Assembly (NCBI GenBank): GCA_015523565.1
Contig: WAKA01000109.1
Coordinates: forward strand, 1-11,724
From: Candidatus Heimdallarchaeota archaeon
GTDB lineage: Archaea; Asgardarchaeota; Heimdallarchaeia; Heimdallarchaeales; Kariarchaeaceae
DNA length: 11,724 nucleotides
Direction: 5' to 3'
Of this stretch, positions 2,195-11,273 are shown piece after piece (positions within the stretch are counted from its first letter, which is position 1; the number at the start of each line of letters is the position of its first letter). Made by a program: the position numbers and the translations under genes. A model generated the notes under the pieces. It made no database searches. It was not told the origin of the DNA and saw only the letters and a list, made by a program, of their open reading frames with translations.

Positions 2195-5100
2195 TTACAA
2201 TTGAGCTTTTTTGCTTCTTTTCCTGTAAGAACCAAATGCAGCAATTCCAATCATAATTAATATTGCAAACAACTTGATTGGAGACTTCTCTGAATTTGAT
2301 GAGATTGATGTTGTTTCTGATGTTGAAGAAATTCCTGTACTTGAAATTGATGTAATGGTTGTTTTTGTTTCTGTAAACGTTGTAGTTGTAGAGAATGATG
2401 TGGTGGGTGTTGAGGTTGGGGATGAGGAGACACTGACTGTTATAGTTTCATTTACTGAAATTCCATAACTGTCTGTAACATTAATAAAGAATATGTATAT
2501 ACCTGCTACCAGATTTTCTAAATTGTATGAAATCTCTTCAGTGCCATTCCATGTACCGCTTTGCACAAGGGAATTATTTCGCTTGATTTCATAAGTTCCA
2601 TAATCCTCGTCATAGATGACCCATGAAAGGCTCTTGTTTTCTCCTTCTGTCATTTCAACTGGCGAAGGAGTATGTTCTATTATGAGGGGATTGTAATTGA
2701 TCGTTAAATTGAATGAAACAACGTATGAATTGTATCCTTCATCATAAAAGAACACATAAATCGGATGCGTTCCCACTGGGATTTGTGCCGTTTTTGCATA
2801 GATTGTAAAGTTGAAGCGGGCAATATTGCCTCCTTCTAAATATGGTGTGGATGACAATGGTCCAAAGAAAGGATCATCAATACTTACATCAAAAAGGATA
2901 TCTTCATTTTCCAATGTTGGTGCTTCAACTTCACTTTCAAGAAAAGGTTCATCAAAGGGGTCTATATATTCGTCTTCAATAGTACCTTCAACAATAGGTT
3001 CTGGTTCATCGTCAAATAAGGGATCCAAAGAATCACGATTCATTTCTTTGATTATATCGGTAGATGGATCAAAAAGCGGATCTGTACTTGGATCTATATC
3101 GTCTACAAATATGAAAACATTGGTTTCCTTGGCAGAACGATCCCAAGTGGCACTATCGTAACTCAAATGAGTAATAATATTATGGAAGCCTTCTGCTGCA
3201 AATTGACTGTAAGGTACTGTGAATTGCCATACAACGGTTTCATTGGGAGGAATATCTGGAAGTGACGACATTACTGTTTCAATCGAAACAAATGTGCCAT
3301 TTGGTAAAGTGGCTCCTATAAACATTCCTGCATATGTGCCATTTGCTAATCTATTTCCATCGTTTCTAGCTGTTAATGTTAATGTCATATTGCCCGCAAA
3401 TGGATCAAATTCTGCAGATAGACCCTCTAGCAATACATCTGGCATTTCCATGTCTGGTTGGGGCATAAACTCCCAAAATGCAGGATTCAGGATGTTTTCA
3501 GAATCCGTGACATTGGTCATTGCATTCATTGAGAAAAGCCCTCCCTCATAAAAATTGAAAGGATCAAATGGTGCAATCGGACCATAAATTGCATATAGAA
3601 AACCGTCTGCATTCTTTGTCCAATCATTTGGTAAAAGGACAGATGAAATGCTAACAATAGGCCATGATGGATATCCCGCCGTAAAGTTAAAATCAATTGC
3701 CTGCAGATCTGAGGCATCCAATGATCCAGGCAATCTAAATTCTAAAAATATATCCTGATTTGTCCAATTTGTTGCATGGAATGGCAATTCTGTAGGATCG
3801 TACATTCCAAACCCATTATCAAGTAAAACATTCGTTTCAAGGAATTCAGTAATTATCATATCGGTAGTATATACAGGTAATGTAGGTGCCACTGATGCCC
3901 ATTCTTTTGGAGCATTGTCATCCATTATAATTGGAATGCCATCAATAGATGCATTGAATTCATAAAATCCTGGAAGGGTGGGTGTGAAATCAAATGGGAT
4001 TATAACATTCTCTCCAGAATCTATTGGTGGTAAGGTTGTACTTAAGATTGGAATATTTGTTCCTGTTTCTGTTTCTATGGCAGTAATTGCAAGAGTTCCT
4101 CCAAGAAACGGATTTGAGTTAACATTTATAATCTCTATGCCATATGAGATGGTATTTCCAACGAGTAGAGGTATTTCTGGAGGATTAATGAGCCATATTG
4201 GATATATGCCAACTTCTGGAGGTGGAATATAAAAGGGATCCTGTGGTGCTTCTTGAATGAAATTAAAATCGAAACCATTATGGGATTCACTTGGAAGTTG
4301 TGGAAATACATCTGGTTGGTAGGGTTGGAAATCCATCCTAAGCGACAACCATCCACTTTCTGTAGGATGCCAAATAAACTCAAAATCAAAAATTGATCCT
4401 GATGGCAAACTATCTATCCAAATACTTTCAATTGGATCGTTGTTTTGCCGACTTCCAAATATCTGCTCATAGATATGAATCCAGCCCCCATCAGGAAAAC
4501 TTAATTCAGATGGGATTTCAAGACGTCCATCAAACAAATACCCGTCACTTGGCATTATTCCTGCTGTTGGGACTGTGGGTGGTGCTTGTGTTGCAGGATA
4601 TAATGATCCAATTACTTCAACGGGGCTAGCGACCTTTATGGGATTCGACTTAACCCATTCCCTATATGACGAATTCTTATGAATGCTCATGTAACTTTTA
4701 ATAACTTTTGCCCAATCAGTGGTCTTATTGAACCTGATTGATGCCGCCCCCTTATAGGTATAAGTTATTGGTGAATTTTTCTTGAAATAAATGGAAATTC
4801 CTGTGGCATTGACTGCGGTTCTTCCCCCGTGCCTTGCAAATCGCATGAAAAGAATTACATCAAGCACTTCTTGAATTAATTTTCTTAATCCCAAATCATC
4901 AACAGCACGTTGAAGAAGCTCTAAAAATTGATACAAGTCGATTTGGTTGCCATCTCCAAATTCATAACTATGATTCCGAGCCCATTCAATTGCTCTGGCA
5001 ATTTTCCATTGGATCGTCTTGTTTTGTAACATCTTTGATAACTTTTTGGTGAATGCTTTCATAGCCTGTTCAAATTTATGGGAATAACTTGCCATGTCTA

Positions 5101-6064
5101 TTGCAACCAATGTTGTCTTGTTTTTCTTCAACATGCCATAGTATTTTCCATAGGTTCCCACTATTATCCTCCCAAAATCATATTCTGTATTATTACAGGA
5201 ACCTTTTCCAAATTCCCTGAATAATGCATAGTAATCCCATCCCTCTCCTGGCTCTGTCTCTTCTGAAGCAACCATGACATTAGTCAGTCCAACAAATTCA
5301 GAAACTACTTCAGAAGCGGCCATGAGGCAGGCATCAAATCCTAAAAGATCTAATGGCTTACCTGCATCTCTCTTGTAATTTTGGAGAACCCGTCGGATTT
5401 CCGGCAATTGCAATATGTCATTTTTGTTCCCCTCATCAACACTCACTCCCATGTCTCCAGCGCCATGATTCCAGATAATAAGTGCAACCTTTTCACTTTG
5501 GCATTGTTGTCTTCCCCATTTCACAAAATCATCCAATGTTTTACCACTGGCCATGTTTACCTCTCCAAGATCCTGTCTTGGAATTAACGAACCATTGCTT
5601 GCAAGCTGGTATCGTCTTGCTCCTGTATATTCTTTTGACTCACCTGGAAGAGGTTCTGAAGTATATCCTTTAGCGGTATTATTGCTGCTATGGCGGTCTA
5701 TTTGAATCAGGACACACGCACAATCAGATAAAAATTTTGAGCCTTTTAACATCTCTTTAATGTCTTTGATAGCTTCGTTCTCCAAATCATTATCTGCATT
5801 AATGTAAATGAGGATTGTCCATTTGACAGTACCAGTTACCAATATTGTATCCTGTTTACCGTTGACCGAAGGGTTGGACAAATCTTTCAAAACATCTGAA
5901 AGAGTTTGAATTTCTCCAGTCTTGGTCAATTGAATCTGCTTATTTACATTTAATTGCGGAAATTGAATGTCATTGTTCATTGATGTGGCAATTGGTACAA
6001 CCAACAATACATAAACAATGCTCAAAATAAAAATATACCTTGAAACTCCCTTTATGCTTACCAT
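2195..6064 (-). CDS. Secreted, C-terminally anchored clostripain-family (peptidase C11) cysteine protease with CARDB/Ig-like stalk
   Basis: Hydrophobic N-terminal signal segment. C11 motifs KWTILIYINADNDLE, EVNMASGKTL..F..W, LIIWNHGAG (His at 5465-5467), LGFDACLMA (Cys at 5327-5329), VASEETEPGEGWDY, DLYQF and GISIYF. These are followed by CARDB/Ig-like beta domains, a Ser/Thr linker, a TM helix and the basic tail RKRSKK. SD GGTGAT at 6077-6072 favours ATG 6064 over GTG 6076 or ATG 6073. Confidence 0.9.
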   Translation of the reverse strand: MVSIKGVSRYIFILSIVYVLLVVPIATSMNNDIQFPQLNVNKQIQLTKTGEIQTLSDVLKDLSNPSVNGKQDTILVTGTVKWTILIYINADNDLENEAIKDIKEMLKGSKFLSDCACVLIQIDRHSSNNTAKGYTSEPLPGESKEYTGARRYQLASNGSLIPRQDLGEVNMASGKTLDDFVKWGRQQCQSEKVALIIWNHGAGDMGVSVDEGNKNDILQLPEIRRVLQNYKRDAGKPLDLLGFDACLMAASEVVSEFVGLTNVMVASEETEPGEGWDYYALFREFGKGSCNNTEYDFGRIIVGTYGKYYGMLKKNKTTLVAIDMASYSHKFEQAMKAFTKKLSKMLQNKTIQWKIARAIEWARNHSYEFGDGNQIDLYQFLELLQRAVDDLGLRKLIQEVLDVILFMRFARHGGRTAVNATGISIYFKKNSPITYTYKGAASIRFNKTTDWAKVIKSYMSIHKNSSYREWVKSNPIKVASPVEVIGSLYPATQAPPTVPTAGIMPSDGYLFDGRLEIPSELSFPDGGWIHIYEQIFGSRQNNDPIESIWIDSLPSGSIFDFEFIWHPTESGWLSLRMDFQPYQPDVFPQLPSESHNGFDFNFIQEAPQDPFYIPPPEVGIYPIWLINPPEIPLLVGNTISYGIEIINVNSNPFLGGTLAITAIETETGTNIPILSTTLPPIDSGENVIIPFDFTPTLPGFYEFNASIDGIPIIMDDNAPKEWASVAPTLPVYTTDMIITEFLETNVLLDNGFGMYDPTELPFHATNWTNQDIFLEFRLPGSLDASDLQAIDFNFTAGYPSWPIVSISSVLLPNDWTKNADGFLYAIYGPIAPFDPFNFYEGGLFSMNAMTNVTDSENILNPAFWEFMPQPDMEMPDVLLEGLSAEFDPFAGNMTLTLTARNDGNRLANGTYAGMFIGATLPNGTFVSIETVMSSLPDIPPNETVVWQFTVPYSQFAAEGFHNIITHLSYDSATWDRSAKETNVFIFVDDIDPSTDPLFDPSTDIIKEMNRDSLDPLFDDEPEPIVEGTIEDEYIDPFDEPFLESEVEAPTLENEDILFDVSIDDPFFGPLSSTPYLEGGNIARFNFTIYAKTAQIPVGTHPIYVFFYDEGYNSYVVSFNLTINYNPLIIEHTPSPVEMTEGENKSLSWVIYDEDYGTYEIKRNNSLVQSGTWNGTEEISYNLENLVAGIYIFFINVTDSYGISVNETITVSVSSSPTSTPTTSFSTTTTFTETKTTITSISSTGISSTSETTSISSNSEKSPIKLFAILIMIGIAAFGSYRKRSKKAQL

Positions 6065-6355
6065 CTTGATCATCACCGTCAGGTCTTCTTGTTAAGAAAA
6101 AGACGATAAATGATTGATTAGGCAAACTGCTATTCATAAATAAATCAATTTCCCTTAAATATGTTATCTGTCATTGTAGGTTAAATCTTTAGGTTTCTTA
6201 AAGTGAAACTATTGATATTCTTTATGGGCATAGGACAAAAAAAATTTAAGTTATGTTCAAAATATCATGAAGTAAAACTAAACGAGTAAAAACTATATTG
6301 GAAAGTTACATTTCCATTATAAGGTTTTGTAAAGTGTTGTATAATTTTTTGGAAA

Positions 6356-6814
6356 TCATTTTTTGTCGAACCATTCTTTCTTGATTTTCTTCCTTTTTTC
6401 TTTTTGCCTTTGATATTCCTTAGTGTCTACTTTCATGATATGAGTTTCAAATGTATTCATCTGTTCAACAACTATATCTACCCACTCCTGGAGCTTTTGA
6501 ATAATTTCCGCTTTGAGTTGTTCCATCGGTTTGGGTCTATAGATATATTTGAATTTGAACTTCTTTCCTTCGCCTTTTATCATTTCTCTTGTACAGAGTT
6601 CCTTTTTCAAGAGAGTATTCAATCCTGTAGTCACTTTGTTTCTAAACCACGCTTTTCCTGTATGTTCCATAAGTGTATCAACATCAGTTTCCATGAGTTG
6701 GTAAAGACTTACAAGAATGATATATTCCATGTGTGAAAGGTTGAAAAATGATTTCACCAATGACTCTAAGTCTTTTGGATTTTTTAGGAGAGCTTCAATG
6801 GAAGGTTTCTGCAT
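6356..6814 (-). CDS. Stand-alone TrmB-like winged-helix transcriptional regulator (COG3355/OxsR-like)
   Basis: Pattern FFNLS..EY.IL..L....TDVDTL......RNKVTTGLNTLLKKELCTR, then wing KYIYRP and helix EQLKAEIIQKLQEWV. No sugar-binding domain. GAGGA lies upstream and the gene starts 2 nt after the previous stop. Confidence 0.8.
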   Translation of the reverse strand: MQKPSIEALLKNPKDLESLVKSFFNLSHMEYIILVSLYQLMETDVDTLMEHTGKAWFRNKVTTGLNTLLKKELCTREMIKGEGKKFKFKYIYRPKPMEQLKAEIIQKLQEWVDIVVEQMNTFETHIMKVDTKEYQRQKEKRKKIKKEWFDKK

Positions 6815-6816
6815 GT

Positions 6817-7170
6817 CTATTCCTCATCCTTAATAAGTTCAAAAAGTGAGCTGAATGCTTTAATATCAAGGTTAACGAGGTTTAATAACATTATGCTTGT
6901 AAGAAGAAAAGCTGTGTTCATAATAAGGAAATGGAAACTTTCCAATTGGGATTTATTGTCATCATCAGAAATGAGAAAGATTGCCATAATTGTAATATAA
7001 AGAAAAGTCAGGAGAATTAAAGAAATTCTTGTTTTTTTCCAAAGTGGTTCTGCTGTACTGTCTTTGAGTATTTCCATCAGTTTGTTAGTTCTTCCGATGA
7101 CAATCCCCATAAATAGTATACTTACAGCAAGTATAGTGTGGAGTCCAATATCAACCCATGACATAATCAT
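6817..7170 (-). CDS. Small hypothetical membrane protein (about 3 TM helices)
   Basis: Three hydrophobic segments; coupled to the regulator gene by a 2-nt gap. Alternative start ATG 7164 fits a TATA-like TTTAAAAA at 7194-7187. Confidence 0.75.
   Translation of the reverse strand: MIMSWVDIGLHTILAVSILFMGIVIGRTNKLMEILKDSTAEPLWKKTRISLILLTFLYITIMAIFLISDDDNKSQLESFHFLIMNTAFLLTSIMLLNLVNLDIKAFSSLFELIKDEE
7117..7135. promoter_or_regulatory. Palindromic operator-like site (copy inside the 5' end of the membrane protein gene)
   Basis: TATACTT-ACAGC-AAGTATA: perfect 7-bp arms with the same geometry as the two copies in the oxidase promoter. Confidence 0.55.
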
Positions 7171-7414: not shown

Positions 7415-7939
7415 ATGAAGAAGATTATTGGTTTTTCCATTCTTTGTCTTTTCCTCATGTCATTCTTGCCAGCCTTTGCACAAGAAGGTGAGCATGGAGG
7501 GCATGGGTCTATTGAAAATTTCTGTCATGAGCCGACACGGAGTATTGTGATCGGAACCGCAGCAGAAGGAAAGAAATTCAACGTAACGCAAGTCAATGTC
7601 GAGAAAGGGGAATGCGTTACTATCATGTTTGTGAATACTCAGGATGCAGAACATGACTTTGCACTTCATTTCGCTAATGGAACAGAGTATTTCGGTTTGC
7701 ATATAGTAGGCAATGGCACAGCCCAAATGAAAATGGTAAATGCTCTTATGCCAAATGAAGATACTGTCATGCCATACTGGTGCACTGTTGAAGATCATAA
7801 GGATCAAGGTATGACTGGCGAGATTATTGTCGGCAAGGGTCTTGTAAGTGGTGAAGAAAGAAGCCTTGGCTTTAATTTCTTTGTTACCTTGCTGTCTTCT
7901 ATTGTCATGGCAATAATATTCCAGAAAAAACAACGGTGA
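7415..7939 (+). CDS. Membrane-anchored type-1 blue copper protein (cupredoxin; sulfocyanin/halocyanin-like role)
   Basis: Signal peptide ending AFA; cupredoxin core (NVEKGECVTIMFVN) with ligands H80, C123, H128 and M133 (YWCTVEDHKDQGM); C-terminal SLGF + TM + KKQR. SD GGTGAT at 7404-7409. Confidence 0.88.
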   Translation: MKKIIGFSILCLFLMSFLPAFAQEGEHGGHGSIENFCHEPTRSIVIGTAAEGKKFNVTQVNVEKGECVTIMFVNTQDAEHDFALHFANGTEYFGLHIVGNGTAQMKMVNALMPNEDTVMPYWCTVEDHKDQGMTGEIIVGKGLVSGEERSLGFNFFVTLLSSIVMAIIFQKKQR

Positions 7940-7944
7940 TTTTT

Positions 7945-8619
7945 ATGAAATCTCGATTTTTTTTTTTACTGACAAGTTTATTATGGTTCGTTTTACCGGT
8001 TTCAGCAGAAAGTAACCTATCTGAACTTTATGATCGCCTCTTTCTTGAGGTGCTTATTTTGTCTGTCATTGTTTTTACCTTAGTGGTTATTCTTTGGGTT
8101 TACATGATACTTAAGTTCAGAAAGGGGAAAGTTGATGCAATTGAAAAATATCCTGTCAGTTTTCATAAGAAGCTCCAAATAACATGGATTGCAGTTCCCA
8201 TTTTCATTGGACTGTTATTGTTGGCAATGTCCCTTCCTGCTCTTTCTGAATTTCAAAAGGAGCTTTCTACTCCTGTGGCTGATGAAACGATAGTTGTTGA
8301 GGCAACTGACAATTGGCAGTGGAAATTCTACAAGGGAGATCAAGTATATCGACCTGTGACTGATGAAAACGGTATTTCTATGACTACCCTTCCTTTAGAA
8401 TCGGGTAGAACCTACAAGTTTGTCCTATGGTCAACTGGTGAAAAGCCAATTATCCATTCATTCTATGTTTACGAACTGAATTTCAAAATGGATGTGGTTC
8501 CACATAAAAACAACACTATCACAGTTACAATCAACTCTCCAGGTTCTTATCTTGTACTCTGTGCAGAATATTGTGGTGCCCGGCATTCAATGATGCGTGG
8601 TGTTTTGGAGGTGAGTTGA
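7945..8619 (+). CDS. coxB: Heme-copper oxidase subunit II (CuA type, no fused cytochrome c)
   Basis: Signal-like N-terminus, 2 TM helices, NWQWKFY, IIHSF and [12 protein letters not shown] CuA ligands. SD GGTGAT at 7935-7940 favours ATG 7945 over GTG 7936. Confidence 0.95.
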
Positions 8620-10979
8620 TGATGCATCATCATTCTGGTTCATTTTGGAAAAATCCCAAACGGATTTTTGGAACTACTAATGCCCAGGAAATTGGACTGC
8701 TTTATTTCGTAGCTTCTATTATCAATATTGCCATTGCGGGAAGTTATGCCCTTCTTATTAGATTAGAGCTTTGGGATCCCCTTCCATCCTTCTTCAAGAG
8801 TCCTATTGAATATAATGTTGCTTTCACCCTTCATGGAACTGCTATGGTTTTCTTGGTTATAGTTCCTCTTGGTGCAGGTTTTGGAAATCTTCTTATTCCA
8901 CGAATGGTTGCTTCTGTCAATGAAGACATGTATTGGCCAAAATGGAATAACTTTGCGTTTTGGCTAATCCCATTCGGTTCAATTTTGATTTGGTCTTCTC
9001 AAGCATATGCAGGTTGGACTGCTTATGCACCTCTGTCGGTAGTAACAGAGGGTGTTGACCTGTGGATCTTAGGATTGATTGTCATTGGTGTCTCTTCATC
9101 CATTGGCTCCCTCAATTTTATTCTTACAATCTGGAAAGGGAAGGCACCATATGTTAAATGGATGGAAATGGACATGTTTGTTTGGGGAACCCTATTTACC
9201 TCCATTCTTTTGTTGTTGACTACCCCTGTCATCAGCATTGCGCTTTTCATGGTATTTATGGATCGTAATATGAACACTCATTTCTTTAATCCAGACTATT
9301 CCAATCCAATTATCTATCAGCACCTTTTCTGGTTTTTTGCACATCCAGAGGTATACGTGCTTTTATTACCAGCGGCTTCTCTTGTTACTATGTTTATATC
9401 CAAGTTTTCAGGAAGACCAGTCTTCGGTTATCGTTCAATCTTAGGTGCAATGTTCAGTATAGTGCTCATGTCATTCATTGTTTGGGCTCATCACATGTAT
9501 ACTACAGGCATCAATCCCTTTGTAAGATTTCCATTCAACTTTTTCACATACATAATTGCTGTTCCTTCTGGTGTTTTGGTCTTTTTCTGGTTATTTAACA
9601 TGTATAAGGGTAAAATTTCATTCCATGAGCCAATGCTGTTTTCTTTGGCATTTATTATCTTGTTTACAATTGGAGGTATAACTGGTGAATTCCTTAATGA
9701 CCTACCTTTGGATTTTGTCTTGCAGGATACATATTGGGTTGTTGGTCATTTCCATTTTGTCGTTGCTTCATCAATCCTATCTGCCCTATATGGTGCCTTT
9801 TACTATTACTATCCCGATATGACTGGAAAAATGTACAACAGGTTAACCGCAAAGCTTCACTTCTGGTTTTGGGTGGTCGGTTCATTTATTGCCTTCTGGG
9901 GGTTTACTATGCTGGGAATGGAAGGCATGCCAAGACGCTATTATACCTATCCCGCAAAATTTCAGTATTGGCACCAAGTTGCAACTGTAGGCGCTTTTAT
10001 GATGGGAATCGGTTTCACGTTTTTCATTTCTTCAATGATATTGGGTTACTTTAAAGGAGAAGAAGTTAAAGATCCAAATAACCCATTTGGAGAAGAAAAT
10101 TCAGCATATAATTTTCCTAAACCCTTCACACGGTATCTCAAGGAAGAAAAGGGTGTAGACATTCAGATAGAGCACAAACTTACTTTCCTCACTCCATTAG
10201 GATCTATTGCTGTGATATTTCCTTTGTTGGCATTGATTTCATCAAACGAAATAGGACCATTCCACGATTCAATCATTGCCGCAGAAAGAGGATTCTTTGC
10301 AAAATATCTCGCACCAAAAGTTTGGACCATGATTTTCTTAGGACTCTTTGTAGTCTACATGGCATTTCTTTTCTTTATCGAATCTGGAAAGAAAGGTGGA
10401 TCTCACCCTCTTGACGTTTACAAAAAAGATAGACATTGGGAAATGTGGACCTTCCTCTTATCTGAGGTCATATTTTTTGCAACATTGATAGGATATTCAT
10501 TGACTATCCGCCTACGAGCAACTGATTGGCCAAATCCGCATGAATATCTTAATGTGGATTTGACAGCTATCAACACTTTTATTCTAATTATCAGTTCATT
10601 TACCATGGCAATGGCTGTCAATTCAATAAAAATGGGTGATCAGAAGAAATTAAAATTATTTCTGATCGCTACAATTCTGTTGGGAATCACATTTATCAGT
10701 ATCCAAGCAAAAGAATATTTGGATCTTTTCCATGAAGGAAATATTGCTTTAACTACTGATGCAAGGTTTAAATTGTATAGTTCCACCTTTTTCTTGCAAA
10801 CTGGTTTTCATGGACTTCATGTTATCATTGGTATCATTTTTCTTATTTTCGTGTTCATTAGGGCAGTCAGAGGCGGATATGATAAGGATAACCATGAATA
10901 TGTGGAATACATTGGATTGTATTGGCATTTTGTTGATCTTGTCTGGGTATTCCTATTCATGCTCCTTTACTTGATTTGA
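8619..10979 (+). CDS. coxA: Heme-copper oxidase subunit I fused to subunit III (A1-type; CoxAC/SoxM-like architecture)
   Basis: Subunit I motifs [34 protein letters not shown] and GMPRRY. Subunit III motifs [17 protein letters not shown] and YWHFVDLVW follow in the same frame. SD GGAGGTGA at 8607-8614; ATG 8619 overlaps the coxB stop, and 8622 is an alternative. Confidence 0.96.
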
Positions 10980-10988
10980 GGTGATGTT

Positions 10989-11273
10989 ATGGAAAATCAT
11001 GCAAAAACATATACAATTACATTGGCAATTTTATTGGTGATAACAATCATTGAATATATTGTTAATTTCATGGAAACTAGTGTCATTAAAATCATCATTC
11101 TTAGTATACTTTCTTTTGTTAAGGCATTTTTCATCGTTGCTATTTTCATGCATGTTAAGTACCAAAAAGACAGGAATGTAATTATTTTCTTTGGTTTCCT
11201 TATTCCATTGATTCTTATTGTCTATCTCGCAGTTATGATATACTTTGACTTTGGAATTTCTGTTGCAAATTAA
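10989..11273 (+). CDS. coxD: Prokaryotic cytochrome c oxidase subunit IV family protein
   Basis: Three TM helices, ITIIEY and KAFFIVAIFMHVKY (FMH motif); SD GAGGTGAT at 10978-10985; last gene of the operon. Confidence 0.88.
   Translation: MENHAKTYTITLAILLVITIIEYIVNFMETSVIKIIILSILSFVKAFFIVAIFMHVKYQKDRNVIIFFGFLIPLILIVYLAVMIYFDFGISVAN

Follow-up and report, generated by a model that had tools for sequence, protein, structure and literature searches.

An A1-type oxygen reductase of Kariarchaeaceae without the K-pathway lysine and the subunit II entry glutamate

Can an A-type heme-copper oxygen reductase work once residues in the lower half of the K proton pathway are replaced? The K-pathway lysine is usually treated as indispensable in A-type oxidases, the type to which mitochondrial complex IV belongs. 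The question is raised by an oxidase operon in an 11,724-nucleotide stretch of DNA (the window; contig WAKA01000109.1 of assembly GCA_015523565.1, our C109) from Candidatus Heimdallarchaeota archaeon, whose genome is 3.57 Mb and 90% complete. Four tightly packed genes on the + strand (7415-11273) encode a cupredoxin-like protein, CoxII, a CoxI+III fusion and CoxIV (Table 1). A first-pass annotation of this DNA had reported that the helix VIII Lys of CoxI is Leu and that the K-pathway entry Glu of CoxII is Gln, and had read the pair as a concerted loss of the K pathway. That reading holds and is wider than first stated, with five lower-channel residues replaced across two subunits.

Both substitutions were borne out by codons and alignments. 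The CoxI codon lies within gct gtt cct tct ggt gtt TTG gtc ttt ttc tgg, and its residue, Leu336, stands opposite the K-channel Lys in ungapped phmmer alignments to 7jro (iiavptgikifswi) and 2yev (iavptgvklf). Residue numbers of CoxI+III count from TTG 8571; subtracting 16 gives those counted from ATG 8619 (Leu336 = Leu320). In CoxII, the codon lies within cat aag aag ctc CAA ata aca tgg att, and Gln81 aligns with the Glu of subunit II in Thermus thermophilus caa3 (drlevvwtlip), Rhodobacter sphaeroides (spleiawtivp) and human (qemetvwtilp). In Paracoccus denitrificans the A-type K-channel residues, the Lys among the defining ones, are K354, T351, S291 and Y280 (PMC3084760). This set is incomplete in the window enzyme: T351, S291 and Y280 correspond to Ser333, Thr273 and Tyr262, and K354 corresponds to Leu336.

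Lys occupies this position in 111 of the 121 closest CoxI sequences. Leu336 is shared by the window and four relatives (70-87% identical), that is, by all five members of the clade, and Lys is present in all 15 of the next relatives, which are fused CoxI+III enzymes at ~55% identity. Elsewhere among the CoxI matches, P0105 has exchanged the Lys for Gln and P0114 has His at the position. Leu336 and Gln81 each recur in at least four further independent sequences (sources NCBI, ENA and Logan). Because Lys is so prevalent among the closest sequences and the same Leu and Gln are found in independent assemblies, the alignments indicate that the pair is not the product of chance or of sequencing error, the latter a possibility that the first-pass annotation had raised. 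In a maximum-likelihood tree, the five Leu sequences form one clade (Shimodaira-Hasegawa-like approximate likelihood ratio test, SH-aLRT, 100) nested among K-containing fused enzymes. This topology indicates one loss of the K pathway, and a derived one. The fused enzyme is, within the order, almost confined to the window's own family; the K-less form is found in one species of the same genus and one species of another genus, and other genera have the K-containing form.

The CoxI and CoxII substitutions also travel together. All five CoxII sequences from the K-less clade have Gln81. Using CoxII sequences extracted from the loci of related genomes, we found that every Leu operon encodes CoxII Gln followed by Trp-Ile, and every Lys operon (four fused relatives and six paralogue-type operons) encodes Glu followed by Trp-Thr. 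No exception to this co-occurrence was found. Between the window and L024, the closest relative with available DNA (87% identity), the nonsynonymous substitution rate (dN) for coxI+III was 0.087 and the synonymous rate (dS) was saturated, as it was even against this closest relative, such that dN/dS for this gene is an upper bound only. For coxII, dN/dS was ~0.07. These values point to strong purifying selection on the oxidase genes. The relatives also conserve the operon order, including a CoxIV homologue 3' of coxI+III. The first-pass annotation had allowed that close orthologues might keep Lys and Glu and that this copy might be under relaxed selection; instead, close orthologues share the change and selection is strongly purifying.

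The remodelling reaches well beyond the two residues. Seventeen positions in the CoxI domain are fixed differently in the K-less clade and its K-containing fused relatives, and helices VI and VIII, with 63 of the 493 alignable sites, hold 10 of them (2.2 expected; hypergeometric p 5.6e-6). The helix limits used for this test agree with the AlphaFold2 (AF2) model. In lower helix VIII the clade carries K336L, N339F and T342F, positions at which the relatives have Lys, Asn and Thr in 15 of 15 cases each. Leu336, Phe339 and Phe342 share one helical face, and Phe339 occupies the P. denitrificans S357 position. CoxII of the clade carries E81Q and T85I. None of these five lower-channel residues (CoxI 336, 339 and 342; CoxII 81 and 85) is protonatable, and four are hydrophobic. 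Higher in the channel, the hydroxyl residues Tyr262, Thr273 and Ser333 are kept, and helix VI differs from the relatives at three sites, where they have Phe (269), Gly (270) and Ser (273). Helical periodicity suggests that Ala269 and Ser270 face the channel, on the same face of helix VI as Tyr262 and Thr273.

A substitute protonatable residue at the site would have offered a simple alternative to loss, as the first-pass annotation recognised. The alignments contained no new protonatable residue in the lower membrane half of helix VI, helix VIII or the second transmembrane (TM) helix of CoxII. We considered Lys278, at the end of helix VI, and CoxII Lys79/80 as substitutes and rejected them, because K-containing relatives have them too. 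Charged residues did appear at the membrane surfaces. Four new acids on the outer (P) side are fixed in the clade, namely CoxI Asp69, Glu373 and Asp377 and CoxII Glu38. In the AF2 model, helix IX spans 353-377 (with low confidence at 376-381), placing Glu373 four residues from its P-side end. CoxII column 38 is Glu in all six K-less CoxII sequences that cover it and I, W, F or L in K-containing fused relatives; its P-side placement is inferred from standard CoxII topology. On the inner (N) side, Arg/Lys288 and Lys346 are new, clade-specific basic residues. Helical periodicity and the bovine and R. sphaeroides structures are the basis on which Glu373, Asp377, Ser270 and Ala269 are placed with respect to the hemes and the channel.

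Outside the K pathway, the catalytic apparatus described in the first-pass annotation (D pathway, cross-link Tyr, and the heme, CuB and CuA ligands) is present, save for one D-path Ser. All six His ligands (H88, H258, H307, H308, H393 and H395) align with the ligand positions of solved structures. The motif FAHPEVY supplies Glu260 and Tyr262, and the CuA site of CoxII is intact (H174...C209-A-E-Y-C213-G-A-R-H217-S-M-M220). The D-channel reference residues of P. denitrificans are D124, N113, N131, N199, Y35, S134, S193 and E278 (PMC3084760). Mapped by motif offsets, the window enzyme has Asn106, Asn126/127, Asn182, Tyr45, Ser174-176 and Glu260, together with an entrance carboxylate that is Glu throughout the fused Heimdall-type clade. 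The exception is the S134 position, which is Ala129 and is also Ala in K-containing relatives.

Assignment to the A family of heme-copper oxygen reductases, subtype A1 in the Pereira/Sousa classification, holds at the sequence level despite the missing K-channel Lys, because it is based on homology (Pfam COX1, 443.9 bits). The same product matches COX3 with 94.7 bits, and scores 509 against the NCBIfam equivalog TIGR02891, under the cut-off of 670.75. Within the heme-copper oxidase superfamily, nitric oxide reductases (NOR) have no cross-link Tyr, carry one or more FeB Glu ligands and lack CuA (PMC11214002, PMC3084760). The window enzyme does not fit this description, as it has the cross-link Tyr262 and the intact CuA site. 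The AF2 model of CoxI+III has a mean predicted local distance difference test score (pLDDT) of 87.2 and a predicted template modelling score (pTM) of 0.89. One further ligand site differs from reference enzymes: Gln385 (9723-9725) stands at what we take, by motif offset, to be the position of bovine H368, a Mg/Mn-site ligand in reference A-type oxidases. Four of the five K-less sequences have this Gln, the adjoining Asp386 is kept, and Gln is also found there in some unrelated archaeal oxidases (P0027, P0071).

The first-pass annotation implied that such an enzyme is rare, but natural A-family oxidases without Lys and CoxII Glu have been catalogued in dozens of lineages (PMC8239418). Degli Esposti et al. 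2021 list ~40 natural examples in which Lys is replaced by L, I, V, M, F, A or T (PMC8239418), and by our own count from that paper's supplementary table for Fig. S7 the COX2 Glu is also replaced in all but four. Acidimicrobium ferrooxidans has the same pair as the window enzyme (L at the Lys position, Q at the COX2 Glu position). Other combinations include L and F in the COX1-3 fusions of Ferroplasma and Picrophilus, A and L in Aeropyrum COX1-3, V and F in Haloarcula hispanica COX1-3, and I and V in the Acidithiobacillus rus-operon oxidase (all PMC8239418). Under one hypothesis in that paper, about seven independent K-channel losses occurred in archaeal family A.

Our own matches contained a second, independent lineage that lacks both the Lys and the CoxII Glu, represented by P0101 (Natronomonas) and P0030. 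Its members are fused, A1-type CoxI+III enzymes: P0030 (L023:2409-4703, a JGI metagenome contig), P0032 and P0101 (L022:4001-6496, Natronomonas sp. EA1). This lineage is also without the K-path Thr (SIPFGI-I/V/M), and P0030 keeps HPEVY and appears to lack the D-pathway entrance carboxylate (NHRMIG). With ~40 enzymes already tabulated and this second case, the window enzyme is, by its residues, a member of the catalogued "modified" K-channel class of A-family oxidases, and its kind is already known.

Within that class, the window enzyme and the catalogued examples share the cross-link Tyr, a hydrophobic K354 equivalent, a non-acidic COX2 E78 equivalent and Ser/Thr at the T351 equivalent. The S357 equivalent is non-polar here and in many, though not all, of the catalogued variants, and the archaeal examples have the CoxI-CoxIII fusion as well. 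The clearest difference lies at P. denitrificans position 292, which is Glu or Asp in every catalogued non-K A-family variant (PMC8239418). Here it is Met274 (Val in one clade member), and the K-containing Heimdall-type relatives likewise have non-carboxylate residues (G/T/S/H/L). The window enzyme also has no extra N-terminal TM helix, and its clade's P-side acids fall outside the description of those variants. Its Asgard lineage, the absence of a position-292 carboxylate, the P-side acids and a cupredoxin gene heading the operon are what this case adds. Asgard COX1 is entered as "K-channel: yes" in the published table (PMC8239418), one recent paper on Asgard oxidases states that the D and K channels are present, and a second does not discuss proton channels. 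The K-less Asgard clade appears to be unreported and is the first Asgard case that we found.

The closest K-containing enzymes are the orthologous fused CoxI+III proteins of Kariarchaeaceae/Heimdallarchaeota (P0009-P0023, including LC_2; 52-58% identity over 90-98% of the length). They share with the window enzyme the I+III fusion, a downstream CoxIV homologue where sequence is available, a Glu as D-pathway entrance residue and the lineage-specific insertion AA(D/I)N(N/A)DMYWPKWNN. The lower part of their helix VIII retains Lys, Asn and Thr, their CoxII retains Glu and Thr, and most are A2-type (YSHPAVY), in contrast to HPEVY in the window. The best solved relative of CoxI+III is the T. thermophilus caa3 I+III fusion (2yev_A; 770 residues aligned, E 6e-119), and CoxII can be aligned over its TM and CuA domains to 2yev_B, as well as to R. 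sphaeroides and human subunit II. The Thermus enzyme differs in being A2-type, in keeping Lys and the subunit II Glu, and in having cytochrome c fused to subunit II; the window CoxII lacks a heme c motif, and the operon instead has its cupredoxin as a gene of its own.

In B-family enzymes such as T. thermophilus ba3, too, proton delivery does without a K-region Lys. These enzymes have no D pathway and use a K-analogue of Tyr, Thr and Ser with a subunit II Glu (PMC3084760, PMC8239418). The window enzyme keeps the D pathway and Glu260, and its K-analogue positions are Thr273, Leu336, Ser333 and Gln81. Because the D pathway is kept and the K-analogue positions are hydrophobic, its residues make it, in channel terms, the mirror image of the B family. 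The "KC-channel" type carries Ser, Ser, His and Tyr-like residues in helix VII, equivalent to CcoN S240, S244, H247 and Y255 (PMC8239418). These C-family-like residues are absent here, where the positions are Gly286, Ile290, Ala293 and Ser301 (mapped by offsets from the HH motif, with the P. denitrificans row "G M A G" of PMC8239418 as control). An alternative channel of B type or KC type was thus rejected on residue identity.

The first gene of the operon suggests where the electrons may come from. Its product is a membrane-anchored, cupredoxin-like protein that carries a signal peptide, has C-x4-H-x4-M as its copper loop and has a TM helix at the C-terminus. A Pfam search returned no match, and NCBIfam gave only a weak rusticyanin/CopI match. 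Wherever a K-less operon has upstream sequence, a cupredoxin homologue precedes coxII (four of four: the window; L024:7794-8318; L005:294-818; L006:286-855), and a search of the same region in two K-containing relatives (G036, G041) found no such gene. These features make the operon blue-copper protein a probable electron donor to the oxidase. Several catalogued K-less oxidases are likewise encoded with a blue-copper protein, for example rusticyanin in the rus operon. As a separate observation, the unrelated K-less operon of L023 has a plastocyanin-like gene downstream (5000-5479). K-less A-type oxidases and dedicated cupredoxin donors may be linked, as in the rus operon.

The same genome encodes three heme-copper oxidases in all. 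That on C37 is A2-type (YSHPAVY) and keeps both Lys and the CoxII Glu, and that on C232 is B-like (GHPVVY). The window enzyme is probably a specialised third oxidase beside these canonical A2-type and B-type enzymes.

Our data suggest that the window enzyme is probably a functional O2 reductase in which the lower K path is truly closed, and most likely one fed by the D pathway. Electrons would pass from the blue-copper protein to CuA, to the low-spin heme and on to the heme/CuB site. The lower half of the canonical K pathway would be closed by the CoxI and CoxII substitutions described above, and the D pathway would carry the pumped protons and the chemical protons of the oxidative phase, as in other A1 enzymes. 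The D pathway or another route would also have to provide the protons for which reduction of the binuclear site normally relies on the K pathway. The catalogued K-less lineages, among them the rus-operon iron oxidisers and aerobic archaea such as Aeropyrum, respire O2. The sequences themselves show which residues are present, that they occur together, that the loss is derived and that selection constrains the genes. Activity, electron donor and proton routing are deduced, and we hold the specific proton routing with less confidence than the claim of a functional O2 reductase.

Three points weigh against this model. In R. sphaeroides, laboratory mutation of the Lys leads to loss of oxidase activity (PMC7601700), with peroxidase activity kept in K362M (PMC7601700, citing Vygodina 1998). 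For this reason, supply through the D pathway alone is without experimental precedent in a characterised A1 enzyme. The solution adopted by the catalogued variants may not apply here either, because they keep Glu/Asp at position 292 and the clade has Met274. Lastly, the upper channel could still be in use and fed from elsewhere, since Ser333 and Thr273 are retained and Ser270 and Ala269 are new.

This last point leads to the strongest competitor of a D-pathway-fed enzyme, namely a K-like pathway that works without Lys. Such a route, filled with water and entered at a new point, would be akin to the Lys-free K-analogue of the B family. Its parts could be F269A, G270S, Tyr327, Asn323 and Asn343, with the clade-specific Arg/Lys288 and Lys346 on the N side. 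The upper K-path hydroxyls are conserved and one more has been added, and the exchange of Phe for Ala at 269, on what would be the Tyr262/Thr273 face, would make room for water. However, the B-type analogue has Thr, Ser and Tyr with a subunit II Glu, where the window enzyme has Leu, Phe, Met and Gln. The lower part of helix VIII now bears three bulky hydrophobics on a single face, and the lower membrane half offers no new protonatable residue in helix VI, helix VIII or CoxII TM2. We therefore consider such a route unlikely, though it survives better than the other alternatives.

Less likely again is uptake of the reductive-phase chemical protons from the outer side, through CoxI Glu373, Asp377 and Asp69 and CoxII Glu38, as in cytochrome c-dependent NO reductases. 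Four new P-side carboxylates fixed in the clade arise together with the K-pathway loss, and Glu373 lies close to the P-side end of helix IX in the model, an end that we take to neighbour heme a3 in solved A-type enzymes. The acids could equally be a docking surface for the cupredoxin, or neutral. Moreover, P0030 has Val at the Glu373 position, so P-side uptake would not be a general solution for K-less enzymes. Were it true, the oxidase would conserve less energy.

It is very doubtful that the enzyme is mainly a peroxide reductase or detoxifies reactive oxygen species, acting as a cupredoxin:H2O2 oxidoreductase. The peroxidase half-cycle needs no K pathway, and the organism has two other oxidases for O2 respiration, but we know of no natural heme-copper peroxidase. 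The sole support for the idea of peroxide as substrate is the laboratory mutant K362M of R. sphaeroides, with its retained peroxidase activity (PMC7601700). Against it, the catalogued K-less A-type enzymes are respiratory-chain components in aerobic archaea and in organisms that oxidise iron (PMC8239418), and Pfam and NCBIfam scans of the operon genes revealed no peroxide-linked regulator or peroxiredoxin. A decaying or non-functional copy, or errors of assembly or sequencing, would fit the near inactivity of laboratory Lys mutants and nothing else, and we reject them as contradicted by intact, translationally coupled open reading frames (ORFs), the full set of ligands, purifying selection, conserved operon order and the recurrence of Leu and Gln in relatives.

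The coordinates of the operon and its key residues are collected in Table 1. CoxII combines a CuA cupredoxin domain with two TM helices and a signal peptide. For CoxI+III, the most likely start is ATG 8619, and not TTG 8571, because this ATG overlaps the coxII stop as TGATG and a GGAGGTGA motif lies upstream. The nearest proteins carry Kariarchaeaceae and Heimdallarchaeota annotations, LC_2 included.

Table 1. Positions in the window of the oxidase genes and of the residues discussed in the text
Feature	Position	Strand	Basis or remark
Cupredoxin-like gene, 174 aa	7415..7939	+	First gene of operon; translation read
coxII (subunit II)	7936..8619	+	Pfam COX2 and COX2_TM; start GTG 7936 or ATG 7945
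CoxII Glu38, near outer (P-side) end of TM1	8047..8049	+	Alignment
CoxII Gln81 at K-pathway entry Glu (R. sphaeroides E101, P. denitrificans E78)	8176..8178	+	Codon CAA
CoxII Ile85, replacing Thr of LExxWT motif	8188..8190	+	Codon att
coxI+III fusion	8619..10979	+	786 aa from ATG 8619; ORF open from TTG 8571
Glu39, D-pathway entrance carboxylate (Asp in reference enzymes)	8685..8687	+	Aligned to (S/T)TNHKDIG
Glu260-Val-Tyr262 of HPEVY, A1-type gating Glu and cross-link Tyr	9348..9356	+	
Helix VI upper K-path face: Ala269, Ser270, Thr273	9375..9389	+	Clade-fixed substitutions
Ser333, equivalent to K-path Thr (P. denitrificans T351), retained	9567..9569	+	
Leu336, K-channel Lys position, helix VIII	9576..9578	+	Codon TTG
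Lower helix VIII stripe: Leu336, Phe339, Phe342	9576..9596	+	Codons and clade contrast
CoxI Glu373 (relatives Val) and Asp377 (relatives Ile), P-side end of helix IX and following loop	9687..9701	+	
coxIV, prokaryotic subunit IV, 94 aa	10989..11273	+	Pfam COX4_pro, E 9e-11

The genome also has a heme A synthase gene of the short archaeal type. The only CtaA match (G000:C121:6946-7383, L026) is ~179 residues long and covers the N-terminal half of the Pfam model, a form that agrees with the 4-TM archaeal type described in Degli Esposti et al. 2021. Divergent to the operon, on the - strand, lie genes for a Lrs14/Sta1-like helix-turn-helix regulator (6356-6814; 152 residues) and an unknown 117-residue protein (6817-7170). 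The L024 oxidase operon is preceded by genes that resemble this pair in size and orientation, one of them giving a faint MarR match, and the Lrs14/Sta1-like gene may regulate the oxidase operon. Farther away on the - strand, a 1293-residue ORF (2195-6076) has an N-terminal clostripain-type C11 peptidase domain (residues 90-461; Pfam E 1.5e-46), and its remaining ~800 residues have no family match. A HEAT-repeat protein (287-1156, -; 289 residues) and a family-2 glycosyltransferase (1184-1990, -; 268 residues) look ordinary and unrelated to the oxidase.

How natural enzymes without the Lys supply protons during reduction of the binuclear site has, to our knowledge, yet to be established by experiment. 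The clade described here is a convenient test case, with a loss that is recent and single and a set of co-substitutions that is small and defined. K-containing orthologues are available from the same archaeal family, and there is no position-292 carboxylate that might substitute, as it might elsewhere. Together with its ~55%-identical K-containing sisters, the clade forms a natural before-and-after pair on the role of the K pathway. If protons were taken up from the P side, it would represent an O2-reducing A1 oxidase with partly NOR-like proton routing and a dedicated blue-copper donor. The clade also adds a detail to the debate over oxygen use in Heimdallarchaeia, in that the published statement that Asgard oxidases have D and K channels fails for some Kariarchaeaceae enzymes. 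The organism itself has three different heme-copper oxidases.

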